Notes: generated by a model not told the origin, from the letters alone. A stretch of DNA of 64,000 nucleotides from Parcubacteria group bacterium M6-OD1-1 (GCA_003056085.1 LSNK01000001.1:88729-152728); one strand, 5' to 3'; counted from the first letter of the stretch, positions 29,299 through 45,581 are shown. Numbers and translations are program-made.

Positions 29299-29384
29299 TA
29301 TTATATCATACAAATAAACTATAACAAATAAAAAAACAACCCTTTAAAAAGGGCTGTTTTTTTATTTGTCTTATGAAAACAAAA

Positions 29385-30157: not shown

Positions 30158-31363
30158 CTACATAGCTGATGTTATATTATACATCGGCATAAGTATAGCA
30201 ACCAAAAGTATACCCACACCTATCCCAAGCACCAAAATAAGAAGCGGTTCTATTATCGTCACCAAATTATCCATAGTATTTTCAACTTCTTTATGATAAA
30301 AATCAGCAACTGTTTTTAACGTACTATCTAATTTTCCCGCTTGCTCTCCTATCGCTATCATCTGACTCACCATAATGGGAATCTCATTGTGTTTTTTAAA
30401 AATAGAGCTTATAGTCCCTCCTTTTTTGACATTATCAATAGTATCTTCGATTATTTTTCTGTAAGTATAGTTGCCGACAACATTGGCAGAAACCTCAAGA
30501 GATTTCACAATGGGCAAACCTCCTTTAATAAGAGTACTTAAGCTGTCGGAAAATCTGGAAAGATAAAACTTGGTAAGTATAGTCCCAAAAATCGGTATTT
30601 TCAATTGAATTGCGCCCCAAATAACCCTCCCCATTCTTGTTGTTATCCAATGCAGAAAACCAACCACACTGCCTATTAACGCAATTAAGATTAACCACCA
30701 ATAACTTTGAAAAATTTCTGAAATTCCAATTACAATCCTTGTAAGTAACGGCAATTCTATATCTGCCTCTGAAAAAACAGATGTCAAATTTGGAATAACC
30801 CATACCATCATAACAAACATAACGCCAACAAGACCAAAAAGAATAAAGGCTGGATATATCATAGCTCCTCTTACTTTCTGAGTTAAATAATATTCTCTTT
30901 CAATGGTATCTGCCAAATAGTCAAAAACTTCTTCCAAGTTTCCGGAAAGTTCTCCGGAATGAACGATACTTATAAAAAAATCAGAGAAAACTTTTTTATG
31001 ACTGGACAGTGACTTGGAAAGAGAATTCCCGGAATTGACACTTTCGGTAATATCCTCCAGAACCTCTTTAAAAGTAACATTTTTAGTTTGGTCAACCATA
31101 GCCTGGAGAGATTCTATTACAGGAACTTTTGCTTGAAATAAGGCCGATATTTGACGAGAAAAAATAACAATTTCTTTTTGGGGAACATGATCAAAAAACT
31201 TAATCCTTTTATTGGTTAAAGAAATTTTAGATGCTTCACGCACGCTCAAAACTATTAAATTATTTCTTTGCAAAGTTTCAACAGCGGCATCTTGAGTTAA
31301 CGCTTCTACTGTTCCTGTTTTTGTTTCACCTTGCTGTGTTTTTGTTTCGTAGTTAAATAACAT
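30158..31363 (-). CDS. pilC: Type IV pilus platform protein PilC (GspF family)
   Basis: Two GspF repeats, three TM helices, 401 aa. Confidence 0.85.
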   Translation of the reverse strand: MLFNYETKTQQGETKTGTVEALTQDAAVETLQRNNLIVLSVREASKISLTNKRIKFFDHVPQKEIVIFSRQISALFQAKVPVIESLQAMVDQTKNVTFKEVLEDITESVNSGNSLSKSLSSHKKVFSDFFISIVHSGELSGNLEEVFDYLADTIEREYYLTQKVRGAMIYPAFILFGLVGVMFVMMVWVIPNLTSVFSEADIELPLLTRIVIGISEIFQSYWWLILIALIGSVVGFLHWITTRMGRVIWGAIQLKIPIFGTILTKFYLSRFSDSLSTLIKGGLPIVKSLEVSANVVGNYTYRKIIEDTIDNVKKGGTISSIFKKHNEIPIMVSQMIAIGEQAGKLDSTLKTVADFYHKEVENTMDNLVTIIEPLLILVLGIGVGILLVAILMPMYNITSAM

Positions 31364-31430
31364 TTGTTCAAGTTATGGTTATTAGATTATAGTTGTTAAG
31401 AACAATAACCTAATTACTACAACCTATCAT

Positions 31431-32498
31431 CTATTTTATGAGCATCCTAAGCTCCGCAGGATTAAGCGAGTGAATTTCAGCGTCTTCCATAGTTATAAGC
31501 CCCTCTTGAACCAATTTAGAAAGTGATTTATTTAAAGAAACCATTCCCATATCCGAAGAAGTTTCTATAACAAGATCAATTTGATGAGCCTTTCCCTCCC
31601 GAATAAGATTTCTAACTGCCGAATTTGCTATTAAAAGCTCATACGCCGCAACTCTGCCTCCACCTATTTTAGGAATAAGTCTTTTTGAAAGAACTCCGAG
31701 CAAAGTTCCTGCAAGCTGAGCCTTTATTTGGTTTTGCTGCGCCGGTGGGAATGAGTCAATTATCCTGTCTATGGTTTGTGCGGCGTTGTTTGTATGCAAA
31801 GTTGAAAATACTAAATGCCCTGTTTCTGACGCTGTAATTGCCGCAGAAATTGTTTCCGGGTCTCTCATTTCGCCAACCATAATGACATCTGGATCCTGAC
31901 GCAAAATAGAACGCAGAGCTCTCGTAAAGCTCTTTGTGTCATTTCCAACCTCTCTTTGATCAACCACTGACTTTACGTCCTTAAATAAATATTCTATGGG
32001 ATCCTCTATTGTAACTATATGATCTTTTCTTTGTTGATTTATCTCGTCAATCATAGCGGCAAGCGTTGTTGATTTTCCTTGCCCCGAAGGTCCAACCACA
32101 AGAAAAAAACCTTGAGAAGTTTTTAAAAGATCATGTATAATTTCCGGATGCATAAGCTCATCTAATGTTTTTATGGTTTCCGGGATAAGTCTTAGGGCTG
32201 CTGCAAATTTACCTCTTTGAAAAAAAACATTGACACGAAACCTTCCTATGCTGTCTACAGTATAGGAAAAATCTATTTCTTTCTCTTCCAGAAATCTTTT
32301 TTTCTGATCTTGACTTAAAATTAAAGACATAAAATCTTCACCTTTTTCTTTTGTTATAACTCCCGCTTCATCAAAGGTGACCAAAGAGCCGTCTATTCTA
32401 AATTGCGGTTTCCTGCCGACTGACAAATGCAGGTCGGAGGCATTTCTTAAAACAACTTCTTGAAGCAATCTTTCAAATTCTTCTTTCAGGTTATTCAT
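31431..32498 (-). CDS. pilT: Twitching-motility retraction ATPase PilT
   Basis: Walker A GPSGQGKSTT, Asp/His boxes and a PilT-type C-terminus, 355 aa. Confidence 0.85.
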   Translation of the reverse strand: MNNLKEEFERLLQEVVLRNASDLHLSVGRKPQFRIDGSLVTFDEAGVITKEKGEDFMSLILSQDQKKRFLEEKEIDFSYTVDSIGRFRVNVFFQRGKFAAALRLIPETIKTLDELMHPEIIHDLLKTSQGFFLVVGPSGQGKSTTLAAMIDEINQQRKDHIVTIEDPIEYLFKDVKSVVDQREVGNDTKSFTRALRSILRQDPDVIMVGEMRDPETISAAITASETGHLVFSTLHTNNAAQTIDRIIDSFPPAQQNQIKAQLAGTLLGVLSKRLIPKIGGGRVAAYELLIANSAVRNLIREGKAHQIDLVIETSSDMGMVSLNKSLSKLVQEGLITMEDAEIHSLNPAELRMLIK

Positions 32499-32514
32499 AA
32501 ATATTTTTTAAAAA

Positions 32515-32904
32515 TTAATTATTAGCGCAAGAACCTAAAATCTCACTTACTTTTTTAACAACTTCTTTTGGTGTGTAATTTGCCTTAATAAGGTAATCTT
32601 TAGCGCCAAGATTCATAGCTTTATCAATCTCCTCTTTTTGACCCAAGTTAGTCAACATCACTACCGGTATATCTTTATATTCATCTACTTTTTTAATGGC
32701 AGCTAATGTTTCCAATCCATCCATTTTTGGCATAACTATATCCAAAAGCACAATGGCCGGCCTTAATCCTTCAGAAAGCATTCTAATTCCGGTTTCTCCA
32801 TCTTCTGCCATAACAGCATCAAACCCTTCAGAATTAAATTTAGTTTGATACATATCGGACAGAAAATTATCATCTTCAATTATTAAAACTTTCTTATTTT
32901 CCAT
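32515..32904 (-). CDS. CheY-like single-domain response regulator (PilG/PilH-like position)
   Basis: VLIIEDD...DIVMPKMDG...K receiver-domain residues, 129 aa, no output domain. Confidence 0.8.
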   Translation of the reverse strand: MENKKVLIIEDDNFLSDMYQTKFNSEGFDAVMAEDGETGIRMLSEGLRPAIVLLDIVMPKMDGLETLAAIKKVDEYKDIPVVMLTNLGQKEEIDKAMNLGAKDYLIKANYTPKEVVKKVSEILGSCANN

Positions 32905-32934
32905 ATTTTTAAAAATTAAAATAAATTATTAAAA

Positions 32935-34650
32935 CTAAACTGTATCCTGCAAAACATCCTCCAATGATATCATGCCTTTTAAAACTTTAATAATGCCGTC
33001 CTGTCTTAATGAAATCATATTCTGTCTTTTTGCTTCTTCATTTATCTTTTCATCAACCTCGCCATTTATTATTATACTTTTTAATTGCGGTGTCATTTCC
33101 AAAACCTCAAATATAACCATTCTTCCAATAGTCCCTTTATGAGCACACTTTGGACATCCTACAGCCTGAAAAATTTTAAATTCCTGTTTTCTAACTTCAT
33201 CCTGCAAAAACTGGGGCATTTCCGATATATTTTTATCAAGTATTTCTTTTGCTCTTCCTTCCGGTTTGTATTCCGCTTTGCAATCATTGCAAAGTTTTTT
33301 GATAAGCCTTTGGGCTATAATAAGATTTAAAGCCGAAGGAAGCAAAAATGATTCAACCCCCATATCTATAAGACGGGAAACAACCCCGATTGCATCATTT
33401 GTATGCAAAGTTGAAAACACTAAATGACCGGTTAACGCAGCATGCACCACTAAAGTTGCTGTCTCTGAATCTCTAACCTCACCAACCATTATAACATTCG
33501 GATCCTGACGCAAGATACTTCTTAAACCGGAAGCAAATGTATAGTCAATTTCAGGCCTTATCTGAGACTGATTAACTCCATTTACATAATATTCCACAGG
33601 ATCCTCCAAGCTTATTATATTAACTTCCTCATTATTTAAAACTCCCAGCATCGACTGTAAAGTCGTTGATTTACCGGAGCCGGTAGGTCCTGTTGTCAGC
33701 ACCATTCCAAAAGGTTTCTTTAAAGACCTCTCAATGACTTCATAAGAATGCCCGAAAAATCCTAATTCCTCCAAAGTTTTAAGACCGGTTGACGGATCCA
33801 AAAGACGAAGCACAACCTTCTCACCTTCAATGGTAGGAAAAGTTGAAACACGAAAATCTATAGGATTTCCGTCTATTCTTATTCTAAATCTTCCGTCTTG
33901 CGGAACTCTTGTTTCATCTATTTTAAGATTTGATAGAATTTTTATTTTAGAAATTATAGCGCTGTGAGTAGCCTTGGGCAAAGTAAGACTGGCATGAAGC
34001 ACACCGTCTATTCTAAATCTTACTCTTGTGTCATCTTCCATAGGCTCGATATGAATATCTGAAGCTTTTCCTTCATAAGCATGCTTGAAGATAACATCAA
34101 TTAATTTATTTATAGGAGCTTCCTCGGATATTTTTTCCGCTTTTTTTGGATCATCTAATTTAATCTCCACTTCTGATGTTTTTTCTTCAATTCCCTCCAA
34201 AGCCTCTTTAACTTTTGTATCTATGGCGGAATATTGCCTAAACAAAAAATTAAATTGAGAATTTGTTATCAAAAATATCTGTGCATTTAAGTTGTTGCTT
34301 GTCAAAATAAATTTAATAGCGTCTGACGCCTTGATATCCTGCGGATTCACCATTCCAACTTCCAAAAGAGATCCCTTTTTTAAGAGCGGGATTATCTTGT
34401 AAGTCCTTGAGACCTCCTCCGGTATTTGGCTTAAAGCATTCCCCGGAATAGAATAATCTTCTCTTACTTTTTTTAAAGGCACTCCGTAAAACTTGCTTTT
34501 TGCATCAAAAACAACATCTTCAGAAAATTTTTCAAGTAAAAATTCTTCTTCAGTTCCTGAAAATTCTGAAAGCTCTTCTTTAAGACTTACAGCCTCTTCT
34601 TTTGAAATTTTATGCGTTGTAAATAATATATCTATTAAAGTTTTTTGCAT
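32935..34650 (-). CDS. pilB: Type IV pilus assembly ATPase PilB (GspE family)
   Basis: N-terminal GspII domain, Walker A GPTGSGKSTTL and a tetra-Cys Zn motif (CNDC...CPKC), 571 aa. Confidence 0.9.
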   Translation of the reverse strand: MQKTLIDILFTTHKISKEEAVSLKEELSEFSGTEEEFLLEKFSEDVVFDAKSKFYGVPLKKVREDYSIPGNALSQIPEEVSRTYKIIPLLKKGSLLEVGMVNPQDIKASDAIKFILTSNNLNAQIFLITNSQFNFLFRQYSAIDTKVKEALEGIEEKTSEVEIKLDDPKKAEKISEEAPINKLIDVIFKHAYEGKASDIHIEPMEDDTRVRFRIDGVLHASLTLPKATHSAIISKIKILSNLKIDETRVPQDGRFRIRIDGNPIDFRVSTFPTIEGEKVVLRLLDPSTGLKTLEELGFFGHSYEVIERSLKKPFGMVLTTGPTGSGKSTTLQSMLGVLNNEEVNIISLEDPVEYYVNGVNQSQIRPEIDYTFASGLRSILRQDPNVIMVGEVRDSETATLVVHAALTGHLVFSTLHTNDAIGVVSRLIDMGVESFLLPSALNLIIAQRLIKKLCNDCKAEYKPEGRAKEILDKNISEMPQFLQDEVRKQEFKIFQAVGCPKCAHKGTIGRMVIFEVLEMTPQLKSIIINGEVDEKINEEAKRQNMISLRQDGIIKVLKGMISLEDVLQDTV

Positions 34651-34659
34651 AATAAAAAA

Positions 34660-35007
34660 TTAAAATGTTGAAATAAATGGATTTTTTCTCCCAGGTTTTA
34701 TAATAATCTCTCCTGACGATTCATATTTTTTAAGATTTGAATAAAAAGGATTATCTAATTCTTTTTTCATTTTGTCTATATCTCTTTTTATCTTATTGAT
34801 AATTACCGCAGAAGACTCCGAAGAAGTAATAATCTCACCTGAAACAAGTTTTGAAACTCCTGCTTGAGGAGGTGCGGGAACGGTTTTAAAAAAAGCATTA
34901 TAAATAAACATAAACCCGACTAAGGACAGAACCACCAAAACAGCCACAAGTAAATTTTGTCTTGTTCTTCCGTCTTTTGGAAATAAATTTTTAATGGAAA
35001 AATTCAT
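34660..35007 (-). CDS. Small single-TM protein in pilM-N-O block (PilP-like position)
   Basis: 115 aa with one TM helix then a soluble domain. Assigned by position only. Confidence 0.4.
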   Translation of the reverse strand: MNFSIKNLFPKDGRTRQNLLVAVLVVLSLVGFMFIYNAFFKTVPAPPQAGVSKLVSGEIITSSESSAVIINKIKRDIDKMKKELDNPFYSNLKKYESSGEIIIKPGRKNPFISTF

Positions 35008-35015
35008 AAATAAAC

Positions 35016-35564
35016 TTACTGATAATACGCGTTTATGCTAACATCAAAATCAAAAATTGGCTCAATCACCACATCTTCTTCAATAACCTGACTGGATCTT
35101 GATATTGAAAATTTTACGATATCCATAAGGTGTTTATTGTTTTTTATATCTTCACTAAAATTTAAAAATGAGTCATAAGAACCGGAAATTTTTAAATTTG
35201 CCAAAATAATATAATATTCTCCCTTTCTAACTGATTTTTTTATAGGAGTTGAAAAACTAACATCTTTTGCAATAAGTCCATTTCTTGAAATAATATAATC
35301 TATTTCAACAAGAAGATCAGCAATGTTTTTTGATTTTGGCAATATATCGTTTATTCTTTGATTGTTTTTTAAAATTGGGGCAAATTCTTTATTTATATTT
35401 CCAACTTCTTTTATAATATATTGATACCCATCAAGCTCTTGTCCTTTTGCAGTAAGACTTGCCGACACTACTCCTACTTCTCTGTATTTAGGTTCAACAA
35501 AAACAACAGTTAAAATAACGGCGATAGTTAAAAAAATTGTTCCGGTTATATACCTTTTGTCCAT
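35016..35564 (-). CDS. PilO-like pilus assembly protein
   Basis: N-terminal TM helix, a coiled segment and a periplasmic domain, 182 aa, immediately after the PilN-like gene. Confidence 0.5.
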   Translation of the reverse strand: MDKRYITGTIFLTIAVILTVVFVEPKYREVGVVSASLTAKGQELDGYQYIIKEVGNINKEFAPILKNNQRINDILPKSKNIADLLVEIDYIISRNGLIAKDVSFSTPIKKSVRKGEYYIILANLKISGSYDSFLNFSEDIKNNKHLMDIVKFSISRSSQVIEEDVVIEPIFDFDVSINAYYQ

Positions 35565-35637
35565 TTTTATAATTTAAAAATTAACTTATCGTTAATCTTC
35601 TTCTTTTTGCTTTTCATCTTTTATTTTATCTTTAAAT

Positions 35638-36162
35638 CTATTTTTTGATATTTAGCAAAACTGAAAATTTAACACCTTTTTCAACTAAAGAGATGTCTGA
35701 TATTTCGTAACTTGATATATCTTTATTTTTAAAATACAAACTCACCTGTTCAGATAGACTTTTTGGATTCAAAGCAACTCCGATTAATTCCACTTTTCCT
35801 CTCATAACATCAAAGTCAGTATTCTCATAATAAACTCTTGGATGAATTGAACTTGAAATGACAGACAAAAGCTTGTTTGGGTCGGCGTGATTTTTTCTTA
35901 AATTTTCAACCACACTAAGTTGACCCTCCACTTCATTAAGTCTTCCTATCTCACTTGAAGTATTTTCTATATTAAGGTTTTTAATGGATTCGGCCACTTG
36001 GTTTAAGTTTTCAGTCAATATTGAATTGTAGAAAAAAAGACCGATATAAGAACCTGCGCTTATTATTAAAAAAATTATTGAGGTCGTTAAAAAAATCCCT
36101 GAAATTTTACTTTCTTTCGCTTCTATTTCAACATCGCTTTGTAATAGAGAAATATCCGGCAT
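35638..36162 (-). CDS. PilN-like pilus assembly protein
   Basis: Short cytoplasmic N-terminus, a TM helix and a periplasmic domain. Follows pilM. Confidence 0.5.
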   Translation of the reverse strand: MPDISLLQSDVEIEAKESKISGIFLTTSIIFLIISAGSYIGLFFYNSILTENLNQVAESIKNLNIENTSSEIGRLNEVEGQLSVVENLRKNHADPNKLLSVISSSIHPRVYYENTDFDVMRGKVELIGVALNPKSLSEQVSLYFKNKDISSYEISDISLVEKGVKFSVLLNIKK

Positions 36163-36320
36163 AGTTAAAAGTTAAAAATTAAAACCTTATGGTAATTATA
36201 CAATAAAAGTTGAAAATAAAAAAATTTATTTATACTTAATAATTGATGAGTTATAGATTGCAGTAATTTATAAAAAATAGCCTATAAACTAACACCCGCC
36301 TCTAATTCTTCAATAACAAA

Positions 36321-37403
36321 TCAGCGCCGCATAGCAAGTCCAACTGCAACAGAAAAAGACGGACCTATATTCTTTAAAGTTTTCTGAAGCTCTTCTGGAT
36401 AAATTAATCCCGAAAATGGATCAGCAACAGATGCTTTAATCTTTAATTTTTCTTCAAAATACTCAGATAGCCCAAGCATATTGGCAGAGCCTCCGCTTAA
36501 AAAAACCTCGCTAATTCTATGATTGCTTTTATTAAAATAAACATTCATAATTCTTTCTGTTTCCGCTAAAACTCCGTCTATCGTACGAAAAACATCTTTA
36601 GCATCTTCTTTTTGCGCCGGTGTCATCTTCAAACCCATGGCTTTTTTCAGCTCTTCGGCTTTTTTATAATCTCCTTGAGTAATTTTTAAAAATGCTTTTG
36701 TTATGGCAACCCCGGAAATATCATAATTATGAGACAGCCTGACAAATCCGTTATCAACTATACAATAATTGGTGGACTTTGACCCTACATCAATTATTAA
36801 AACCGGACTTTTAATGCCCTTGGCTATGGATCTTGCCATTGGAAATGTTTCCATTTCCAATGCCACAAGATCAACGCCGGACAACATTGATATATTGGAA
36901 TATTTACTTTTTACTTCATTTGGTATAGCAACCAAAAGAACTTGAATTTTATTCACCTTAGACCCTTCTTCTTTTTTTTCTCTTTCTATAATAGTTGAAC
37001 TTAAAGAAACCTGATCCATAGGAACCGGTATATATTGTCTTGCTTGAAATTCTATTGCTTTTTTAAGTTCGTTTTTTGAAAGATCAAGCATCTCTATAAC
37101 TGTAGAAAAACTTGAGAAAACAGGCACACTCATAGCGGTTTTTTTTGCTTCTGCCCCTGATTCTTTTATTATTTTTATAATCAAATCCGCGACTTGATCA
37201 TCAAGCACCCTTAAAGAAGCTTCTTCAAACTCACCTGCATCACCTCTTGAAAAAAGATGTATTTCGCCATAAGTATCAAGTTTGTATTTAGAGCCCTTCC
37301 TTGTTAATTGAACTATTTTTATAGAAGATGTCCCTATGTCCACACCCAAAAATGTGTGTTCTCGAAAAAGCTCAAGAAAGTTTATTTTTTGCGTTAATTT
37401 CAT
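36321..37403 (-). CDS. pilM: Type IV pilus assembly protein PilM (actin-like ATPase)
   Basis: LGVDIGTSSIKIVQL phosphate-1 motif of the actin/FtsA fold, 360 aa. Confidence 0.85.
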   Translation of the reverse strand: MKLTQKINFLELFREHTFLGVDIGTSSIKIVQLTRKGSKYKLDTYGEIHLFSRGDAGEFEEASLRVLDDQVADLIIKIIKESGAEAKKTAMSVPVFSSFSTVIEMLDLSKNELKKAIEFQARQYIPVPMDQVSLSSTIIEREKKEEGSKVNKIQVLLVAIPNEVKSKYSNISMLSGVDLVALEMETFPMARSIAKGIKSPVLIIDVGSKSTNYCIVDNGFVRLSHNYDISGVAITKAFLKITQGDYKKAEELKKAMGLKMTPAQKEDAKDVFRTIDGVLAETERIMNVYFNKSNHRISEVFLSGGSANMLGLSEYFEEKLKIKASVADPFSGLIYPEELQKTLKNIGPSFSVAVGLAMRR

Positions 37404-37422
37404 TTTATAATTTTAAAACAAC

Positions 37423-38706
37423 CTATGGTCTTTGCTCTTGAAACTCTGGAATGGGTTTATTAACATTTAGTTCCCCGGAATTTTTTGTTTCAGTGCAAGG
37501 ACCTCCTGTATTATCTCCTGTTATAGAAAGTGATATTATTTTATCTCCTGAACTTAAAAATTGAACCGTCGGGTCAGCTACTGTTGCATCATCAGTCCCT
37601 TGATATATAGAGTCTGCAATATCCCAGAAAAATGTATCACCAAAAGCTGAGGTGCAATCTCTCAAAATATCACCTGTAAAACATTGAGTAACTCCTGTAC
37701 TTGTAAATAATGTATCTAAGTTTGGAACTATAAATACCGGACTCCATGTAAAGTCAACCACAGGACGTCTATTTACTTCAATGAAAAAATCCGGAGAGCC
37801 TGCCATCTCTGTTACCGGAGAATCCTGACTGATGAAATTAGTAACCTTCACATTCCAATTATAACTCTCGCCCCTGATAAGAGTTGTCCCAACATAAGTA
37901 ACAGACTGTGTTTCTCCAGGTAATCTGACTATATTCCCCGTTATTGTCGCAACCGGCAAAATATCACCAATTTTAGTTACAGTTATTTCATAACTTTGCA
38001 TATTATAAAAATTTGAAAGATCGTATGTAAAATTAAAAATAGGAACTCTATTGTCGGTGCAATAAATTATAGATGTCCCTGTCGGAGTAACAGTAGGCGC
38101 CTCCGGCGCTAACCTTGCTTCGTATATTGAAGGTCCTGGAGTTCCATCCGAATCATCGCTAAAACTTATCCAACCGGGCACCACATCACCCCAAGCAAAT
38201 CCATTGAAAGTTCCGTCTCCTGCTGCAGCAACCTGATAATTTGATATTGCACAATTTCCTCCATTTTGACAGGAAAAAGAAATCCAGCCATTCGAAGCCT
38301 CCCCAATACTTGATAAAACTCTCGCCCAACCCAGAAGGTTTCCATTCGGATCTAACCTTGCCGTACAAGATCCGCTCGGACAACCAACTACATCAGCGGC
38401 ATTAAAAGAAATCCACCCAAGATTATCACTCCATGCATATCCCGAAGACTCCCTTGTTGTATGGGAAAACAAAACACCATAATCTGAAGTGGCGCAAACA
38501 CCTTGATTTTGACAACTCATACTTATCCATCCCGTATTTTCAGACCAAATCCAACCCAAAACATCAATTCCCTGACCTGCTGCCAAAGCAGAAGGCTCCT
38601 TGCGGGTTTCAGACCAACTTACAAAAACAAAAACAGCAAGAAAAACCACTAAGCCTGCGGCAAAAAAAATCTCTGCTTTACGCATATTGTGAATAATTTT
38701 TTTCAT
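37423..38706 (-). CDS. Secreted protein with GW(I)SxS repeats, at the head of the pilus locus
   Basis: N-terminal TM/signal, then repeated ...NTGWISMSCQNQGVC / NLGWISFN / SNGWISFSCQNGGNC / VPGWISFSD units. Same repeat type as the 44040 protein. Confidence 0.55.
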   Translation of the reverse strand: MKKIIHNMRKAEIFFAAGLVVFLAVFVFVSWSETRKEPSALAAGQGIDVLGWIWSENTGWISMSCQNQGVCATSDYGVLFSHTTRESSGYAWSDNLGWISFNAADVVGCPSGSCTARLDPNGNLLGWARVLSSIGEASNGWISFSCQNGGNCAISNYQVAAAGDGTFNGFAWGDVVPGWISFSDDSDGTPGPSIYEARLAPEAPTVTPTGTSIIYCTDNRVPIFNFTYDLSNFYNMQSYEITVTKIGDILPVATITGNIVRLPGETQSVTYVGTTLIRGESYNWNVKVTNFISQDSPVTEMAGSPDFFIEVNRRPVVDFTWSPVFIVPNLDTLFTSTGVTQCFTGDILRDCTSAFGDTFFWDIADSIYQGTDDATVADPTVQFLSSGDKIISLSITGDNTGGPCTETKNSGELNVNKPIPEFQEQRP

Positions 38707-39168: not shown

Positions 39169-41736
39169 ATGGAAACATTAAATAAAATTTTTGAAAAATT
39201 TACATTGCATGCAAAGAATCTTTTTTTTACAGCAATGTCAGAGATAGAAAATAAAAAATCAAAGCTTATTGCTCCGGAGCATCTTTTGAGTGCAATTTTA
39301 AAAGAAAATGGTTCTTTGGCATATAATCTTTTGATGGTAAATGGAGTTAAACCAAAAAAAACAACTCCAAAAAAATCGGATGCTGATGCTTCTTATTCTC
39401 AAAAAACAAAAAAAAATCAAACAGAAATAAATCAAATAATTCTTTCAAAGTTAGATAATGCATCAAAAGAAATTTTAGTAAAATCAGTAACCGTAGCAGC
39501 ATTTCACGAACATAAATATATAGGATCAGAACATATCCTTTATGCAATTTTAGAAAAAACAGATCTTCTGAAAAAAAATAAAAATTATGAACAGCTGAAA
39601 AAGCAGACTCGTGAAATACTGGGTTCTTCTTCTCAGTTTCAAAATCTTCAAGAAGTTCCGCCAAATATTGCAAAAGGAAATTTTTTAAGCCACACAACCA
39701 CAAAAAAAGAAAATGCACAGCCAAAAAAAGAAATGGAAAAGGAGCTAAAAAATGACGAAAAATTTCCGGCTCTTTCTTTTTTCTGCGAAAATTTAAACAA
39801 AGAATGCAGCACTAAAAAATCAATGCCTGTTTTTGGCAGAGAAAAAGAAATAGAAAGGATATCTCATATTCTTTTAAGAAAACTAAAAAACAATCCTCTT
39901 CTCATTGGAGAGGCGGGAGTTGGGAAAACGGCAATAGTAAAAGGACTTGCTCAAAAAATAGTTAAAAAACAAATTCCCGCAGCGCTTTTAGACAAAAAAA
40001 TATTCTCTTTGGATATGGGGCTTTTAATTGCCGGGACATCATTTAGAGGAGAATTTGAAGCAAGACTTAAAGACATTTTAGAAGAAGCGGAAAACGAAGA
40101 AGTTGTTTTATTCATAGATGAAATACACACAATAGTGGGCGCAGGCTCAGCATCAGGTTCGCTTGATGCCGCAAATATGATAAAACCTGTGCTGTCGTCA
40201 GGAAATATTAAAATAATAGCCGCAACAACACCAAAAGAATACAAACTAACTATCGGAAAAGACACAGCCTTAGCAAGAAGATTTCACCCTGTGATAATAA
40301 AAGAAGAAACTCCAAAAGAAACACTCAGAACAATCTCGGGACTGAAAGAGACATATCAGGAGCACCACAACATAAAAATATCCGATGAAGCGATTGAGCA
40401 TGCTATTTTATATTCAGAAAAATATTTCCCGCAAAGAAAACTGCCCGACAAAGCTTTGGATTTAATAGATGAAGCATCTTCGTATCTAAGCAACACAAAA
40501 ACGGCCTCAAAAGACCAGCAAGAATTATCCGAAATTAAAAAAGAACTTGAAACTGTTATAGACGAAAAAAGAATGGCGGTTTTCAATGAAGATTACAAAA
40601 CTGGAAATGAACTTAAAAAAGTAGAAGGGTTTTTAGAGCAGGAAGCAAAGTTCCTGCAAAAAAGCATAGAAAGAGTGGGCTTCCAAGAACCGAGACTGAC
40701 TCTAACAAAAGAACATATAGAAAAAACTTTATATAAAATTCTAAACTTGCCGAAAACCGAAAAAGAAAATGAGAAAAAAGTTCTGAATCTCAAAAAGCAT
40801 CTGTTGAAAAATATTATCGGTCAAAATGAAATTATAAAAAAAGTTTCAGAAAACATTATAAGAGCGCACGCAAATATAAGAAAAAAACAAAAACCTCTCG
40901 TTTCTTTTGTATTTTTAGGACCGTCAGGAGTTGGAAAAACCGAACTTGCAAAACAAATTGCAAAAGAAGTTTTTGGAAGCTCGTTTGGCTACAATAAAGA
41001 GTTTAATTCTTTTATAAGAATAGATATGTCTGAATTTTCAGAACCTCACAGTACATCAAGACTACTCGGCTCCCCTCCCGGATATGTCGGGTTTGAAGAG
41101 GGTGGTTACTTAACGGAGAAAGTTAAAAATAACCCAAGGTCTCTTATTCTTTTTGATGAAATAGAAAAAGCTCACCCTCAAATATTTAACATATTGCTTC
41201 AAATATTAGATGAGGGGGTTTTAACCGACTCAAATTCTCAAGCGGTTGATTTCAAAAATACCATCATCGTTATGACATCCAACATAGGAACTGAGGAATT
41301 TAACAAAGAAACTTTGGGATTTTTCGGACAAGAGAAAAAAGAAGCAAGGAAACACTTTGAACAGATAAGAGAAAAAACAAAGAAGTCTTTAAAAGAGATT
41401 ATGCGTCCGGAACTTATAAACAGAATAGACAGCATACTTACCTTTTTACCCCTCTCTCCCGAAGCTCTTAAAAAAATAGTTAAAAAGGAGATAAAAGAAT
41501 TTAAAACACAGCTTAAAAAATCCAAAAATATTGATCTTGAAATCTCGGAAGATGTGCTCAAATATTTAACGGAAAAATCCCAAAGCAAAGATGAAGGAGC
41601 AAGACTTGTAAAAAGAATGATTGAGGAAAAAGTTGAGTTTCCTTTGGCTGAAAAAATATTATCAGAAAAAACAAAAGATGGAGATAAGATAAAAATATCC
41701 CTCGGTAAAAACGGGTTAGAAATTTTTGAGAACTAA
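39169..41736 (+). CDS. clpC: Clp/Hsp100 family AAA+ chaperone (ClpC/ClpB-like, two AAA modules)
   Basis: Clp-N repeats, D1 Walker A GEAGVGKTAIVKGLAQKI, D2 Walker A GPSGVGKTELAKQIA, a sensor-2 region and a short middle domain, 855 aa. Confidence 0.85.
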   Translation: METLNKIFEKFTLHAKNLFFTAMSEIENKKSKLIAPEHLLSAILKENGSLAYNLLMVNGVKPKKTTPKKSDADASYSQKTKKNQTEINQIILSKLDNASKEILVKSVTVAAFHEHKYIGSEHILYAILEKTDLLKKNKNYEQLKKQTREILGSSSQFQNLQEVPPNIAKGNFLSHTTTKKENAQPKKEMEKELKNDEKFPALSFFCENLNKECSTKKSMPVFGREKEIERISHILLRKLKNNPLLIGEAGVGKTAIVKGLAQKIVKKQIPAALLDKKIFSLDMGLLIAGTSFRGEFEARLKDILEEAENEEVVLFIDEIHTIVGAGSASGSLDAANMIKPVLSSGNIKIIAATTPKEYKLTIGKDTALARRFHPVIIKEETPKETLRTISGLKETYQEHHNIKISDEAIEHAILYSEKYFPQRKLPDKALDLIDEASSYLSNTKTASKDQQELSEIKKELETVIDEKRMAVFNEDYKTGNELKKVEGFLEQEAKFLQKSIERVGFQEPRLTLTKEHIEKTLYKILNLPKTEKENEKKVLNLKKHLLKNIIGQNEIIKKVSENIIRAHANIRKKQKPLVSFVFLGPSGVGKTELAKQIAKEVFGSSFGYNKEFNSFIRIDMSEFSEPHSTSRLLGSPPGYVGFEEGGYLTEKVKNNPRSLILFDEIEKAHPQIFNILLQILDEGVLTDSNSQAVDFKNTIIVMTSNIGTEEFNKETLGFFGQEKKEARKHFEQIREKTKKSLKEIMRPELINRIDSILTFLPLSPEALKKIVKKEIKEFKTQLKKSKNIDLEISEDVLKYLTEKSQSKDEGARLVKRMIEEKVEFPLAEKILSEKTKDGDKIKISLGKNGLEIFEN

Positions 41737-42415
41737 AAACCGGCAACCCAAAATAAAACTCCTTGCTTTAAAAACAAGGAGTTTTATTTTAGACATATTT
41801 TTCCCTTCTTTTTGTGTTACTTGCAAGAAAGAAGGAGTTTTTTTGTGCAAAGACTGCAAAAAGAGAATAGATATATTTAAAACTCCATCTCACTTCCCCA
41901 AAAAATCAAAATTGGAAATTTTTTACTGCGCAACAAAATACAAACAAGACGAAATAGAAAAATTAATTTACAGCTTTAAATATCAATTTATAAAAGAAAT
42001 TAAAAATGAACTTTGTGAAATTTTAATGGAACATCTTAAAATATCCGGGTTCAAAAAAAACAGCAGCCAAGTTTTAATACCTGTGCCTCTCCACAAAAAA
42101 CGACTAAGATGGCGAGGCTTTAACCAGTCTGAAATTTTAGCAAAAGAAATTTCAGATCATTTTGATATACCAATGATAACAAATGTGCTTTTCAGAAAAA
42201 AATACACAGAACCGCAGACTTTAAAACAAGACAGAAAAGAGAGAATTAAAAATGTTAAAAATGCTTTTTTGTGTAAAAATATTGAAATTATAAAAGACAA
42301 AGAAATAATTTTAATTGATGATGTTTTAACAACAGGCGCCACTTTAAAAGAGTGTGCTAAAATCCTCTCAAAAAATAATATAAAAAAAATAATCGCCATA
42401 ACAATAGCAAAATGA
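41726..42415 (+). CDS. comF: ComF-family protein (phosphoribosyltransferase domain, N-terminal Zn finger)
   Basis: CVTCKKEGVFLCKDCKK Zn ribbon then PRTase motif ILIDDVLTTGATL. The true start probably lies downstream of the annotated overlap with clpC. Confidence 0.75.
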   Translation: MRTKNRQPKIKLLALKTRSFILDIFFPSFCVTCKKEGVFLCKDCKKRIDIFKTPSHFPKKSKLEIFYCATKYKQDEIEKLIYSFKYQFIKEIKNELCEILMEHLKISGFKKNSSQVLIPVPLHKKRLRWRGFNQSEILAKEISDHFDIPMITNVLFRKKYTEPQTLKQDRKERIKNVKNAFLCKNIEIIKDKEIILIDDVLTTGATLKECAKILSKNNIKKIIAITIAK

Positions 42416-42453
42416 CAACTTTGGGGACGACCGTCCCCAAAGTTGTCATTTTG
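42413..42453 (+). terminator. Rho-independent terminator after comF
   Basis: tgacaactttggggacg/accgtccccaaagttgtca then ttttg. Confidence 0.7.
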
Positions 42454-42553
42454 AAATTCTAAAAATTTCTGTATTATAAATACTCAAAGATATTGCAAAC
42501 CGGCAAAAAAAATGATAACTTACTATTTATCAAACAAAATTCCGTTATAAAAC

Positions 42554-42620
42554 GGAGAGGTGGCTGAGCAATCGCCCCGTAAAAAGGCAGCGGTCTTGTT
42601 CCCAATTTATTCAAATCTTT
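42554..42620 (+). pseudogene. 5' tRNA-Ser-like fragment (acceptor plus D-arm) with divergent tail
   Basis: GGAGAGGTGGCTGAGC... identical to the first 16 nt of the intact tRNA-Ser(TGA), then diverges (cgccccgtaaaaaggcagcggtcttg-ttcccaatttattcaaatc). Confidence 0.5.
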
Positions 42621-42678
42621 AATTTGGTGATAAATTGCAATCCCGAAATAGAATTTGTTTGCAATTTGATATTAGAGC

Positions 42679-42800
42679 GGAGAGGTGGCTGAGCGGTTGC
42701 TCCCTGTTTGTCCAAGAGCAGTAGCGATTGGCTAACAAACAGCAGTACAGCGAGGCGAAGCCGAGTCGTAAAGGCGATAGTCTTGCTCCCGATTTGTTCA
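42679..42800 (+). pseudogene. Disrupted tRNA-Ser-like copy carrying a 58-nt hairpin insertion in the D-loop
   Basis: GGAGAGGTGGCTGAGCGGT, then the insert 42698..42755 (tgctccctgtttgtccaagagcagtagcgattggctaacaaacagcagtacagcgagg), then CGAAG-ccgagtcgtaa-AGGCGATAGTCTTG-ctcccgatttgttcaaatc. No anticodon or T arm. Confidence 0.5.
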
Positions 42801-42823
42801 AATCATTAATAATTTATAAAGCG

Positions 42824-42909
42824 GAGAGGTGGCTGAGCGGTCGAAGGCGATAGTCTTGAAAACTATTGTACGTTCACGCGTACCGAGGGTTCGAATCCCT
42901 CCCTCTCCG
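42824..42909 (+). tRNA. tRNA-Ser (TGA), type II with long variable arm
   Basis: GGAGAGGTGGCTGAGCGGTCGAAGGCGATAGTCTTGAAAACTATTGTACGTTCACGCGTACCGAGGGTTCGAATCCCTCCCTCTCCG, anticodon loop CTTGAAA. Confidence 0.85.
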
Positions 42910-42956
42910 CTTTGTACGATATTATGATTTGATTACAAATCGCAGTGCTGTGCAAA

Positions 42957-43010
42957 AACTATTGTACGTTCACGCGTACCGAGGGTTCGAATCCCTCCCT
43001 CTCCGCTCTG
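42957..43010 (+). pseudogene. Direct repeat of the 3' half of tRNA-Ser(TGA) (anticodon-loop to 3' end), att-site-like
   Basis: aaaactattgtacgttcacgcgtaccgagggttcgaatccctccctctccgct is identical to 42856..42909. It generates the artefactual ORF 42866..43090. Confidence 0.6.
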
Positions 43011-43080
43011 GTATTAAATCAAATTTTATTCGGGAAAAACGTTGCTCCGCTTTGCAACGGAAAATTAATTTACCAAAAAA

Positions 43081-43153
43081 GCGCCCATAGCTCAGCTGGT
43101 AGAGCAGTCGCCTCTTAAGCGAACGGTCCCAGGTTCAAGTCCTGGTGGGCGCA
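43081..43153 (+). tRNA. tRNA-Lys (CTT)
   Basis: GCGCCCATAGCTCAGCTGGTAGAGCAGTCGCCTCTTAAGCGAACGGTCCCAGGTTCAAGTCCTGGTGGGCGCA, anticodon loop CTCTTAA, one mismatch in the anticodon stem. Confidence 0.8.
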
Positions 43154-43203
43154 CAAGAAAATCAAAATTATAAAATAAATTAGTTTACAATTTAATCTTA
43201 TAT

Positions 43204-43330
43204 GAAGAGGTGACTGAGTGGCTGCTCCCTGTTTGTCCAAGAGCAGTAGCGATTGGCTAACAAACAGCAGTACAGCGAGGGCTCCCATTTTATTCACGCT
43301 TGCGTGAGTACAAAATGCAGTGCTTTAGCC
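43204..43330 (+). pseudogene. Disrupted duplicate of tRNA-Ser(GCT) 5' part carrying the same 58-nt insertion
   Basis: GAAGAGGTGACTGAGTGG, then the insert 43223..43280 (identical to 42698..42755), then unrelated sequence. The upstream 25 nt (tagtttacaatttaatcttatatg) are duplicated from the intact gene's promoter region. Confidence 0.5.
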
Positions 43331-43399
43331 TTTAGCCCGAGTCGTAAAAGTGACATATATACTTTATAATAAAAGATAGTTTACAATTTAATCTTATAT

Positions 43400-43488
43400 G
43401 GAGAGGTGACTGAGTGGCTGAAAGTGACACCCTGCTAAGGTGTTGTACGGGTTAAACCGTACCGAGGGTTCGAATCCCTCCCTCTCCG
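43400..43488 (+). tRNA. tRNA-Ser (GCT), type II
   Basis: GGAGAGGTGACTGAGTGGCTGAAAGTGACACCCTGCTAAGGTGTTGTACGGGTTAAACCGTACCGAGGGTTCGAATCCCTCCCTCTCCG, anticodon loop CTGCTAA. Confidence 0.85.
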
Positions 43489-43501
43489 CAATAGTAAAAA
43501 G

Positions 43502-43531
43502 GAAGTGCTAATTTATTAGCGCTTCTTTTTT
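43502..43531 (+). terminator. Terminator after tRNA-Ser(GCT)
   Basis: gaagtgctaat-tt-attagcgcttc then tttttt. Confidence 0.55.
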
Positions 43532-44039
43532 ACTTCTGTGAAGTAGGGATTCGAAGAATCCTCCCTGTTTGTTCAAATTTTCACCTAAAAGGTACAGGTA
43601 ATTTAATAACAAAACGCAGTACCTTTAGTGTAAGCCATTCGTTTTTTTATTTTATGATGTCTATTGGATAAAATCCGAACTTATTTTAAACAGAACCCCG
43701 ACTAATCACGTGCCGAGCGCATGGTAACTCTAAACTTTCTCTTACGCTTCTATGAATTGGTAATTCTGTCGGTGTGTTTCCGTCCACCCCTGCTGTGTTG
43801 CGATGAACCAAAACAGAAATTTTTTCAATACATTTTTTTAATTTTTTTCTGTCCTCATCTTTTTCTTTTAATAGAATTTGTGAAGTGCCCTGCGGGTGAA
43901 AAAATTTTTCTGTTTGGGGTTTCCTCTTAACCAGAGAAAAGCGGAAACGTTCTAATCTGAATCGCAAGAAGAACAAAATTCCTTCCCCCATCACACCTAT
44001 GCGCGAGCAATATAAAGGAATTCCCTGAAATTTCAAAAG

Positions 44040-45581
44040 CTATTGACGTTCAAATACCTCTTTTAATTGAGCGCGAGTCTTTGGTCCGACCAAGCCGTAT
44101 CCGGTAGTTTTTTCATCTCCAAAAGAAACAATATCGTGTTTTTTTTGAAACCTTCTTACTGCGTCTTGAGTAAGTTGTCCAAAATATCTAGTCTCATTGC
44201 TCGCTGAGCCGGAGCCTTGATCGGCAAGTTTTGTATCAGGGTCTGAATTGAGCAACTGTTGCAATTCTTTTACATCGTCATTCTGCATTCCAAATCGAAG
44301 AGTTTTAATAAACACAGCCAAAATAGGTTGAGTCGGCGTTTCCAGCTGTTGAATAGAAGGGGTTTCCGTTGGTATTTCTGTGGGTTGTTGTAAAAAAGAA
44401 TTCACAAACGCTCTGGTTGACGGCCCGAAAAAACCAGTGCCTCTTTTTAATCCTATAGGAGCCAAAATTTTCGAGGCGTGCTTTTGCTGGTATATAATGA
44501 GTGCTTTTTTGGTTAAAGGCCCGAAGTATTTGGTTTCGTTGCCCGGAGAACCTGGGCCTTGATTCGCCAAAGGATGCAGTTGGTTTAAGAATTTTTGCAA
44601 AGTTTTGACATTTTCTCCTTTGTCGCCAAAACGCATATTGCGCTTAAAAAGCACTACTGTTGTAAAATGTTCCTGTGGAGGTAATTGAAAAATCTTTTTG
44701 GGAGCATAAATAACACTATCGGAGATAACTTTTGAATACCGTACATATTTGTTAGAAAATTTAACATAGAGTGTTTTTTCTCCATATTTTCCCGATAAGA
44801 TCCATGAGGTTGAAGTAGTGTAATTGATATATATAGCTGGAGAGAAGTTTAAATTATCCGCAATAGCAATTTTTTCAGCATCCGGTCCGCCTTCAAAATT
44901 AAGAATGACAGTAGCGTCATTAGTAATATCTGGAATTATGAAAAATTTAAATCCGTCATCTGGTTCAGTTAGAGGAGGCGGAGTCCAGCCACCACCACCT
45001 CCGCTAATAGGGTCAGTTTCGTCAGTGTCGCTAGCTGACGAGCAGCCGGGATCTGAAGGATAATCAATTAGACCATCGCCGTCATCATCAAGAGAATTAT
45101 TGCAAGCCGCCCGCGCGCTTTGAGGACGCCAATCTGTTTTGACTTTAAAATCAGATGAACCGCAAGAGCTGGCATTGGCGCAATTAAAACTAATTTGGCC
45201 TGTTACAGTGCTTGAAGCGTAGCCGCTGAAATATCCCGAGCTACCAATAGTAACACCGGAAAAATCTACCCAGCCGGTATTTTCTCCCCAAGCTGAGCCG
45301 GACAATATTCCTTCGCCGTTATTGTTAACGCCTGAACCGTCTGGATTAAGGTTGATCCAACCGTAATTGGCGCTCCATGTATATCCGGTCATGCCTGTAT
45401 CAGTAATGGCTACACTGCCGCCGGATACGCCAAAATTTATCCAACCGGCATTTTCCGACCAAGCGTATTTATATGTAGAGTCAATTGTGCCGTTGGTTTC
45501 AGAAGCGAAAGCAAAACTTGGCAATAATAGAATTATAGATGTTACTAAAATAAAAAATAATTTTACGTATTTTAATTTCAT
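44040..45581 (-). CDS. Secreted protein with W-S/G-E-N-x-G-W-I/V-x-F repeats and two C-terminal peptidoglycan-binding-like repeats
   Basis: Signal peptide. Repeats AWSENAGWINFG / TWSANYGWINLN / AWGENTGWVDFS. Acidic DDDGDGLIDYPSDPGCSSASDTDETDP segment. The helical bundle pattern ...GDKGENVKTLQKFLNQ...YFGPLTKKALIIYQQKH (PG_binding_1-like) occurs twice at the C-terminus. Confidence 0.6.
   Translation of the reverse strand: MKLKYVKLFFILVTSIILLLPSFAFASETNGTIDSTYKYAWSENAGWINFGVSGGSVAITDTGMTGYTWSANYGWINLNPDGSGVNNNGEGILSGSAWGENTGWVDFSGVTIGSSGYFSGYASSTVTGQISFNCANASSCGSSDFKVKTDWRPQSARAACNNSLDDDGDGLIDYPSDPGCSSASDTDETDPISGGGGGWTPPPLTEPDDGFKFFIIPDITNDATVILNFEGGPDAEKIAIADNLNFSPAIYINYTTSTSWILSGKYGEKTLYVKFSNKYVRYSKVISDSVIYAPKKIFQLPPQEHFTTVVLFKRNMRFGDKGENVKTLQKFLNQLHPLANQGPGSPGNETKYFGPLTKKALIIYQQKHASKILAPIGLKRGTGFFGPSTRAFVNSFLQQPTEIPTETPSIQQLETPTQPILAVFIKTLRFGMQNDDVKELQQLLNSDPDTKLADQGSGSASNETRYFGQLTQDAVRRFQKKHDIVSFGDEKTTGYGLVGPKTRAQLKEVFERQ

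Follow-up and report, generated by a model that had tools for sequence, protein, structure and literature searches.

Nested copies of a small structured hairpin element at a tRNA-Ser locus of a Parcubacteria group bacterium

A stretch of 64,000 nucleotides from Parcubacteria group bacterium M6-OD1-1 (GCA_003056085.1 LSNK01000001.1:88729-152728; the whole 64-kb stretch is called the window, and coordinates are counted from its first letter) contains a compact tRNA locus with intact genes for tRNA-Ser(TGA), tRNA-Lys(CTT) and tRNA-Ser(GCT) (59–68 bits with the Rfam tRNA model; Table 1), pieces of tRNA-Ser, and recurrent short motifs that belong to a small hairpin element described here. An earlier note, made from the sequence alone, had listed these features as the graveyard of integration and excision events. 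All of them are present, with coordinates off by a few bases at most: the two intact tRNA-Ser genes and tRNA-Lys (found by ARAGORN and Rfam), a 5' tRNA-Ser fragment, a disrupted tRNA-Ser copy whose start was recovered by a repeat finder, and a T-arm-like piece (43545-43565). Some details are revised. The repeated 3' half of tRNA-Ser(TGA) (42955-43010 versus 42859-42914), taken to be perfect over 54 nt and 47 nt distant from the intact gene, is identical at 55 of 56 positions, with only the first 53 perfect, and lies 44 nt away. The partial duplicate of tRNA-Ser(GCT) includes 36 nt of upstream sequence and tRNA nt 1-21 rather than 25 upstream nt (43168-43224 versus 43364-43420; direct repeat, 91% over 57 nt). 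The two motifs recur as described, the 5' motif six times in the locus rather than three to four, and the 3' motif, ACAAA-NN-GCAGTRC, five times rather than four. Five copies of the latter within 900 nt compare with 0.43 expected per window, and none of 100 shuffles attained five. A further 5'-motif match at 10722 was rejected as chance; it lies within the L11 gene and has no 3' partner.

The two motifs are the 5' and 3' flanks of a single hairpin of ~47 nt: each pair of motifs brackets a hairpin, and the NN positions of paired motifs covary (TG/CA, GA/TC, AT/AT). Most matches are 46–48 nt long and share the consensus (G)CTCCC-NN-TTTGT-YCAAGAGCGAAGCGATTGR-NNA-ACAAA-NN-GCAGTRC, in which the stretch between the fixed words is conserved, though it lay outside the search pattern. 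Across 47 distinct cores, 13 base pairs are formed with 98.5% of cells paired and 59 double-sided changes; none of 500 shuffles equalled the element, and slid controls paired at only 28–48%. A tandem G.A/A.G step is kept in 42 of the 47 cores, the apex is mostly GC-GNA-GC, and the ends are asymmetric (CTCCC versus GCAGTRC or GAGTCGTR). A second hairpin ("tail") usually accompanies the core, and units of types (i) and (iv) consist of two GA-motif hairpins. What the earlier note read as scars left by individual events are the ends of a conserved structured element that occurs throughout the candidate phyla radiation (CPR).

This breadth was established by scanning 185,579 species genomes for the pattern CTCCCNNTTTGT-N(15-45)-ACAAANNGCAGTRC, which returned 59 loci; by chance alone an estimated ~4 would be expected (596 Gb searched on both strands with 31 gap lengths, over 4^21.5). 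Forty-nine of the loci are in genomes named as CPR/Patescibacteria (Saccharibacteria, Paceibacterota, Parcubacteria, Azam-, Niyogi-, Wolfe-, Kaiser-, Zambryski- and Jorgensenbacteria, and Patescibacteria); the other ten are in eight unclassified metagenome-assembled genomes (MAGs), one Ignavibacteriales MAG and a weak Paenibacillus match. Several MAGs have matches on two or three contigs. A covariance model of the hairpin element (R1) found 72 copies in 441 kb of collected loci. In the window, six copies lie within 1.1 kb, all on the + strand, and R1 found no convincing copy in the rest of the 64 kb, where weak matches at 12011, 10735 and 62913 were not convincing. The first of these (12011-12058, +; 19 bits, E 0.04) keeps CCAAGAG...GATT and CAGTAC, lacks CTCCC and the paired stem, and may be a very degenerate copy or a chance match. 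No Rfam 15 family matches the element, the only hits being to tRNA plus sub-gathering antisense-tRNA/hairpin artefacts, and full-text literature searches retrieved only studies of group I introns in Patescibacteria tRNAs, in which it is not described. Overall, the element appears to represent an undescribed, CPR-wide family of structured hairpin insertion elements targeting tRNA loops, of which the window holds an unusually deep nest.

In this nest (42554-43630), the breakpoints of the tRNA pieces coincide with the positions of the elements, namely the D-loop, the anticodon loop, a T-arm remnant and the apical loops of other copies (Table 1; arrows mark junctions). The outermost layer is fragment 1, whose D-loop holds the footprint of a deleted unit (ACCCCGTA in a second assembly of the species, L073), followed directly by element E_f, which matches R1 at 42597-42645 (27.5 bits, E 6e-4), has a predicted hairpin fold and is better preserved in L073. 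The next layer is an outer tRNA-Ser(TGA) copy divided into three exons by E_a and E_b. E_a comprises a core (42700-42748) and a 22-nt tail hairpin (AGCGAGG-CGAAG-CCGAGTCGTA) that recurs in 12 other loci, and its removal restores the D-arm of the intact copy with one mismatch. The arms of E_b (5', 42786-42822; 3', 42911-42954) pair over >21 bp as an inverted repeat, and its apex is the intact tRNA-Ser(TGA) gene with a leader/trailer stem of its own; R1 also detects the 3' arm, and an alternative local reading at 42903-42950 reaches only 23.5 bits. Excision of 42700-42770 and 42786-42954 yields a tRNA-Ser(tga) by ARAGORN with one mismatch to the inner gene (88 nt). As ARAGORN was too permissive when 30,720 boundary combinations were tried (13,614 "tRNAs" of many identities), comparison with the intact paralogue was used instead. 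The 401-nt region 42640-43040 folds in a perfectly nested manner (-172.9 versus -108.3 +/- 5.6 kcal/mol, z = -11.5).

Downstream of tRNA-Lys, the tRNA-Ser(GCT) duplicate carries a G2->A change that breaks the acceptor stem, and its D-loop holds E_c, whose core (43225-43273) is identical to that of E_a (direct repeat, 96% over 75 nt). E_d is in turn nested within the tail of E_c. The last copy, E_e, follows a truncated module, recognised by comparison with six other loci and termed Unit T (see below), and is identical in L026, another assembly of the species. A mismatched A/T-tract hairpin after tRNA-Ser(GCT) was missed by a promoter/terminator scan, which gave no useful information. A small hairpin at 43040-43059 might possibly be the last relic of the 3' end and trailer of the resident gene, as suggested by a 10-nt match.

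Table 1. Coordinates of tRNA genes, tRNA pieces, hairpin elements and Unit T copies (window positions unless a locus is named)
Feature	Position	Strand	Evidence or remark
Intact tRNA-Ser(TGA), inner gene	42823-42910	+	ARAGORN; Rfam tRNA, 59.4 bits
Intact tRNA-Lys(CTT)	43081-43154		ARAGORN; Rfam tRNA
Intact tRNA-Ser(GCT)	43400-43489	+	ARAGORN; Rfam tRNA
5' motif CTCCC-NN-TTTGT	42599 (variant), 42700, 42786, 43225, 43282 (variant), 43561	+	
3' motif ACAAA-NN-GCAGTRC	42735, 42935, 43260, 43310, 43609	+	
Fragment 1, relic of resident tRNA-Ser(TGA) from nt 1 to G35, broken off after anticodon-loop CTTG	42554-42598	+	
E_f, complete, degenerate hairpin (TTCCC AATTTAT ... ATAAATT GCAATCC) right after fragment 1	42599-42641	+	
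Leader of layer-2 tRNA copy, pairing ~40 bp with trailer 43011-43036	42642-42678	+	Inverted repeat; minimum free energy fold of 42640-43040
Outer tRNA-Ser(TGA) exon 1, nt 1-21, to D-loop ...GGTTG	42679-42699	+	Direct repeats
E_a unit, 71 nt, in outer D-loop between G and A	42700-42770	+	R1, 66.6 bits (42698-42750)
Outer tRNA-Ser(TGA) exon 2, D-stem 3' strand to CTTG	42771-42785	+	Identical to intact copy
E_b, 169 nt, hairpin split around cargo, at TTG↓AAA (35/36) of outer copy	42786-42954	+	
Outer tRNA-Ser(TGA) exon 3, A36 to 3' end ("54-nt repeat")	42955-43010	+	Direct repeat, 98% over 56 nt
Small hairpin with GCTCCGCTTTG	43040-43059	+	10-nt match to tRNA 3' end and trailer
Ser(GCT) partial duplicate, 36 nt upstream and tRNA nt 1-21	43168-43224	+	tRNA part from 43204
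E_c unit, in D-loop of Ser(GCT) fragment	43225-43346	+	R1, 66.6 bits (43223-43275); tail ends CCGAGTCGTA at 43346
E_d and short tail TTTAGCCTTTAGC, in apical loop of E_c tail hairpin	43282-43323	+	R1, 38.2 bits (43280-43325)
Ser(GCT) fragment resumes (AAAGTGACA; D-stem 3' strand, anticodon-stem 5' strand), then truncated	43347-43355	+	
Unit T, truncated 5' end: antisense to local T-arm (AGGGATTCGAA), then GAATC	43543-43560	+	Inverted repeats
E_e, hairpin with enlarged AT-rich apex (43561-43622) and tail CTTTAGTG	43561-43630	+	R1, 29.2 bits (43559-43624)
Unit T copy, L008	2040-2300		
Unit T copy, L011	7590-7760		
Unit T copy, L020	440-640		
Unit T copy, L027	6480-6640	-	
Unit T copy, L030	2500-2690	-	
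Unit T copy, L050	~2000-2230	-	

Several lines of evidence point to insertion of the element into pre-existing sequences. L073, assembled independently from a metagenome and belonging to the same species (98.3% identity over 4.1 kb), runs across the nest with the same arrangement, and the arrangement is therefore not an assembly artefact; two further assemblies, L060 and L026, end exactly at the locus. Comparison with related genomes, as the earlier note had proposed, revealed empty sites: two orthologous loci reached via ComF homologues (L061 and L065; 62% and 61% identity) have an uninterrupted ComF-tRNA-Ser(TGA)-tRNA-Lys order. Fragment 1 shares its upstream context and the anticodon-stem GCGGT with the L065 orthologue; as this ancestral context is kept, fragment 1 is the relic of the resident gene, cut at 35/36. 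Between the window and L073, fragment 1 differs at 9 of 45 nt (20%) and E_f at 4, against a background of 1.7%, and the inner 384 nt differ at only 2 positions; decay thus tracks the layers and is fastest in the outermost fragment.

The sites themselves are regular. The unit boundaries G↓CTCCC ... GAGTCGTR↓A are constant in 14 units with no target duplication, and the position preceding the element (-1) is G in 54 of 61 copies, with G or T at -2 in 49 and A at -3 in 40. Identical E_a and E_c occupy the homologous D-loop position of two different tRNA-Ser genes. Empty and filled sites also occur within one locus, as in L008, where one member of a paralogous Unit T pair is empty (GAACCGCGGG↓CCGCAG) and the other holds the hairpin, and self-nesting in apical loops reaches a depth of four (L013, L036, L043, L048). 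The layout of the window is repeated in L003 (Wolfebacteria), where a Ser 5' part ending in TTG↓ is followed by a nested element, an intact tRNA-Ser and a 3' piece that resumes after the same TTG. These features argue against the view that the element is a non-mobile functional motif (for processing, termination, priming or protein binding in tRNA operons) spread by local duplication or gene conversion. Such a motif would account for the extreme conservation across CPR classes with no linked enzyme and for the clustering at tRNA loci; moreover, mini-hairpin apices of this type are known at single-stranded DNA (ssDNA) priming sites, and tandem G.A pairs are typical of protein-binding features. 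As copies inside D- and anticodon loops would destroy tRNA function, copies nest in one another, related genomes and paralogous units lack the element at the same sites, and identical copies occur in two different tRNA-Ser genes, this explanation is considered highly improbable.

The idea of the earlier note that tRNA 3' ends served here as att sites of tyrosine integrases is only partly supported. tRNA-Ser has undergone successive insertions, with the partial copies as gene pieces that are displaced or relic. The breakpoints, however, fall within the D-loop and the anticodon loop (TTG↓AAA) rather than at an att core of the 3' end; the junctions CTTG↓CTCCC... and ...GTGCA↓AAAACT have no common overlap, so that the loop is split rather than duplicated; and the 54-nt repeat reads as the outer tRNA 3' exon, set behind a 169-nt hairpin insert that contains the intact gene, rather than as the attR of an excised island, its 44-nt spacer being one hairpin arm whose partner is upstream of the gene. 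A Pfam screen of 57 open reading frames (ORFs) across the window detected neither an integrase or transposase nor an HUH enzyme. The alternative that the note named, intact intron-bearing tRNAs in an invariant arrangement, does not hold either, as the fragments are not simply such genes and orthologous loci vary. The locus is best read as a pile-up of a small conserved hairpin insertion element.

A refined integrase model would regard the partial copies as attL/attR duplications, and the hairpin and Unit T as arms of tiny integrase-less derivatives mobilised in trans, like cis-mobilisable elements (CIMEs). It fits the placement of 5' partial copies upstream and 3' copies downstream of the intact gene with the element on the island side, the start of 3' copies in the anticodon loop or T-loop, which are reportedly the classical crossover sublocations, the large serine recombinase genes abutting tRNA genes in L012 and L050, and the joint duplication of a Gln fragment and the element in L040 and L047. 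Against it, the hairpin junctions lack a common core and partition the anticodon loop, and simple insertions (E_a, E_c and that in L024), self-nesting and the empty/filled Unit T pair require no identity block. Two independent att events would not yield the >21-bp complementarity of the E_b arms, and the free covariation of the stem implies folding of one strand rather than paired protein half-sites. With no integrase in the 64 kb or recurrently linked elsewhere, and "islands" of only 40–200 nt, the model seems quite unlikely.

On the preferred reading, which is judged to have about an even chance of being right, the locus comprises six or more nested copies of a small mobile element, non-autonomous and inserting into hairpin loops. 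The element would insert in one orientation, between G and A and with no target-site duplication, into loops of sequences able to form stem-loops: the D-, anticodon and T-loops of tRNAs, other copies of itself and other hairpins. In the order of events proposed for the window, the ancestral tRNA-Ser(TGA) would have been split at TTG↓AAA, leaving fragment 1 and E_f as the relic; a second tRNA-Ser(TGA) copy would then have gained E_a in its D-loop and the 169-nt E_b in its anticodon loop, with E_b bringing a complete replacement tRNA-Ser(TGA) at its apex. The Ser(GCT) partial duplicate would have gained the same D-loop unit as E_c, later hit by E_d, and E_e would have entered the remnant of another tRNA-flanking module. 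E_b might accordingly be a "self-compensating" insertion that brings its own tRNA, and the partial tRNA copies might be by-products, either displaced gene ends or tolerated duplicates.

The element probably moves as folded ssDNA, with the aid of a trans-acting enzyme whose gene might lie elsewhere; an HUH/Y1-type transposase would be one candidate, a structure-specific recombinase another. ssDNA is favoured over RNA because the GCGNAGC apex is a classic DNA mini-hairpin: d(GCGAAGC) melts at 76.5 C versus 39 C for r(GCGAAAGC), and DNA mini-hairpins of this apex type are typical of ssDNA initiation/priming sites and resist binding of single-stranded DNA-binding protein (PMC13037366). Also, the element is oriented almost at random with respect to neighbouring ORFs (45 same, 32 opposite) and some neighbouring copies are inverted (~4 of 72), which favours the DNA level, as do copies beyond terminator-like hairpins and in dead gene fragments. 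The survey of tRNA pieces (73 elements scanned, 67 of them outside the window) points in the same direction, since outside the window none of the 67 elements lies within a complete tRNA gene. Standard annotation of 95 complete CPR genomes lacked no tRNAs other than those for Asn and Asp (PMC13011429), so that interrupted genes are not the sole copies of other tRNAs, and this too favours the DNA level.

The principal rival places the element at the RNA level, as an intervening sequence whose hairpin is a recognition motif for a CPR endonuclease and ligase and is excised from precursor RNAs, in the manner of archaeal bulge-helix-bulge (BHB) introns, which are found at many tRNA positions, can be nested and can bound whole RNAs as processing stems. 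The motif recognised would be the internal loop GCUCCC / GCAGURC above helix P2, the outer tRNA-Ser(TGA) would function as a gene of three exons, and its second "intron" would release a second tRNA. The outer exons are indeed intact (one mismatch in 88 nt) while unconstrained pieces decay; the inserts in D-, anticodon and T-loops and in the loops of other copies parallel archaeal non-canonical introns; long leader/trailer stems surround both tRNA copies; with RNA parameters 38 of 47 cores fold better as the top strand; introns are known at position 35/36 of Patescibacteria tRNAs (PMC13011429); and an RNase III is encoded in the window. In addition to the absence of elements from complete tRNA genes outside the window, a scan of metagenomes for genes that are interrupted yet complete (3' arm, then T-loop) weighs against this rival: only 1 of 31 matches was genuine, from the window's own species, and the other 30 were ordinary tRNAs with a D-arm, GCACAAAUGGCAGUGC, mimicking the 3' motif. 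Every interrupted tRNA copy has an intact one next to it, and some are clearly dead (G2->A, truncations); the element is also present in non-tRNA intergenic hairpins, in both ORF orientations, and beyond terminator-like hairpins. Inspection found no BHB geometry at the junctions, no Rfam ribozyme or intron matched, and the GCGNAGC apex is by far the more stable in its DNA form. RNA-level excision is considered unlikely. Rather improbable is the stronger version, in which the hairpin would be recognised by a hitherto unknown, protein-dependent system of RNA excision and ligation in CPR bacteria, equivalent to BHB splicing in archaea, and a functional outer tRNA-Ser(TGA) would result; the same estimate covers a variant in which tRNA-matching segments (the 5' fragments plus the antisense and sense parts of Unit T) would be guides that programme the destination of the element.

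D-arms like those in the metagenome scan, in tRNA-Thr, Asn, Pro, Ile and others and often in arrays (L067-L097), match ACAAA-NN-GCAGTGC. The likeness may be a coincidence or may hint at the origin of the motif.

Partial tRNA copies accompany the element elsewhere. Among the 73 elements, 8 abut a direct 5' copy of a nearby intact tRNA, mostly tRNA-Gln, that ends at index 21-23 in the D-loop, and 8 precede a tRNA 3' copy beginning in the T-loop, each beside an intact gene; tRNA sequence on both sides of an element was seen only in L024 and the window copies. The tRNA-Gln layout comprises fragment, element, second GA-motif hairpin, ~55 nt and intact tRNA-Gln. The Kiruna MAG has the entire series of fragment, insert, element and tail twice, at separate loci. 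Gln fragments with unrelated GC-rich D-loop hairpins of 30-36 nt (e.g., CCTGGCCGGTTAGGCCCGTCCGCGGGCAGG) were seen in L040 and L047 (in both upstream of the element) and in L049 (7430-7480). L065 (4400-4760) has a tandem 5' duplication of tRNA-Ser(GCT), comprising 55 nt upstream, nt 1-20, an 18-nt D-loop insert and nt 26-38; it has no recognisable hairpin element and is joined at the microhomology CCCTGCT(A/T)AG.

Unit T is a second conserved structured module, found downstream of CPR tRNA genes and without a match in Rfam (Table 1). It consists of a T-arm antisense segment, three conserved hairpins and a direct copy of the tRNA 3' end from C56 of the T-loop. The antisense segment covaries with the local tRNA (five copies, 6 compensatory pairs), and the hairpin element is an optional insert in one Unit T loop.

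Among known systems, the two-hairpin units are most like miniature IS200/IS605-type elements because of their asymmetric ends and the absence of duplication. IS200/IS605 elements, palindrome-associated transposable elements (PATEs) and repetitive extragenic palindromes with their transposases (REP/RAYT) are likewise small, non-autonomous and strand-specific, with asymmetric ends, no terminal inverted repeats (TIRs) and no target duplication; they depend on imperfect hairpins and insert beside a short sequence in ssDNA. The element has the asymmetric ends and subterminal hairpins of IS200/IS605 and PATEs, without a TIR and without a target site duplication (TSD) at 14 junctions. It differs in that neither a Y1/HUH transposase nor a RAYT was found, a single hairpin takes up almost its entire length, insertion is into a hairpin loop with a loose A-K-G↓ consensus, looser than the TTAC or TTGAT of IS200/IS605, sequence is conserved phylum-wide, and one copy has tRNA cargo. 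As for REP/RAYT elements (REPINs), there is no GTAG head, inverted doublets are few, copies are inside tRNA-derived sequence and no RAYT was found; as for DDE-type miniature inverted-repeat transposable elements (MITEs), the tips differ (CTCCC versus GCAGTRC plus tail) and there is no TSD.

Integron attC sites and ssDNA sites of the CTX-phage type share a folded single strand, an imperfect palindrome with a one-strand bulge, a variable cargo-holding apex and an occurrence in arrays, and the element is built in the style of attC, its apex being variable and its 3' strand having a bulge of 2-3 nt. The attC R boxes (RYYYAAC / GTTRRRY) are absent, the conserved helix being NNTTTGT/ACAAANN; no link to IntI or Xer was found, and unlike attC the element inserts into tRNA loops and its own copies. 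tRNA-targeting integrative elements similarly leave partial tRNA copies flanking an intact gene, with 3' copies from the anticodon loop or T-loop; here, 5' copies are as common as 3' copies.

Archaeal BHB tRNA introns, split and permuted tRNAs and Thermoproteales intron transposition (PMC3218864, PMC3241643, PMC3978253) resemble the present case in short related inserts at several tRNA positions, multiple or nested inserts and long leader/trailer stems around tRNAs; they differ in that the host here is bacterial and most interrupted copies are incomplete. The BHB geometry (two 3-nt bulges, 4-bp helix) was absent by inspection at the E_a and E_b junctions, where CUCCC is not complementary to the sequence preceding the 3' site. 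A splicing endonuclease is not known. The group I tRNA introns of Patescibacteria occur in the same phylum and use the 35/36 site of E_b and E_f, but are hundreds of nt long and reside in Asn and Asp tRNAs, whereas the elements here are 47-71 nt (169 with cargo) and in Ser (PMC13011429). The group I model RF00028 had no match at E <= 10 in 42000-44200 or at the gathering threshold in 19 loci, and the U.G and internal guide sequence features of these introns are absent from the elements.

Several observations weigh against a mobile DNA element. The core, with a mean column identity of 83% across CPR classes, is unusually conserved for a MITE-like element and could have a host function instead. 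The strand-specific folding signal is weak (9 wobble versus 5 A.C cells), and DNA parameters show no difference between top and bottom strands. Of 25 copies near tRNAs, 24 are on the strand of the tRNA, as a role in RNA would also predict. In six divergent lineages, the tRNA-Gln 5' fragment matches the tRNA downstream of it at 22 of 22 positions, a hint of constraint or of a role resembling that of a guide, and the frequent partial tRNA copies lack a mechanistic explanation. Pfam and NCBIfam searches of the 57 ORFs of the window found no Phage_integrase, resolvase, rve, DDE or HUH domain, no Y1 (HUH) TnpA was found within the window or the 441 kb of loci, and across the 59 loci no enzyme family is recurrently linked, the best occurring in 4. 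No copies were found in 2.9 million viral contigs, and the searches thus yielded neither an engine nor a vehicle.

Other candidates for the enzyme were rejected. These were a GIY-YIG protein and a large serine recombinase, each at ~3 loci and not flanking elements; the unannotated ORFs beside the locus; and a retron-type reverse transcriptase (RT) at 62.5 kb, which showed no connection with the tRNA locus. L047 (952-1209, -), L002 (1-279, -) and L050 (2752-3111, +) have small ORFs resembling GIY-YIG nucleases among their tRNA genes. That of L047 is flanked by a 5' fragment of tRNA-Gln (nt 1-25) and by the intact tRNA-Gln, in the manner of a free-standing homing endonuclease. The large serine-recombinase-like genes of L012 (249-1874, +) and L050 (3109-4758, -) are 39% identical to each other, are convergent with and abut tRNA-Ala and tRNA-Ser(CGA), and may mark tRNA-targeting islands in CPR genomes.

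The window is otherwise ordinary core chromosome, and its only mobile-type gene is the RT, ~19 kb from the locus. This 320-aa protein and an adjacent helix-turn-helix (HTH) protein (62562-63837, -) have PADLOC RT_VI (1e-29) and HTH_VI (4e-14) as their best matches, which indicates a type VI retron defence system. Beside the locus is a large type IV pilus/competence cluster (25206-38706 and 41726-42415) encoding pilins with N-methylation motifs, prepilin peptidase, T2SSE, T2SSF, PilM, PilO and ComF. The cluster fits a DNA-uptake lifestyle and could be relevant if the element travels as ssDNA.

CPR/Patescibacteria have genomes of ~1 Mb, mostly single-copy tRNA genes and few recognised mobile elements. 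In genomes so small and so poor in mobile elements, a phylum-wide, highly conserved structured element of 47-71 nt would be a new player in genome dynamics, one that targets tRNA hairpin loops, nests within itself, can bring a replacement tRNA with it and has displaced tRNA pieces around it. It also has practical consequences: it breaks short-read assemblies, two of three assemblies of this species stopping at the locus, and it may confuse tRNA annotation. If the RNA-level reading is true, the element would be a new class of bacterial intervening sequence. The cargo of E_b raises the question of whether a carried tRNA makes insertion self-compensating, or even addictive, for the host.

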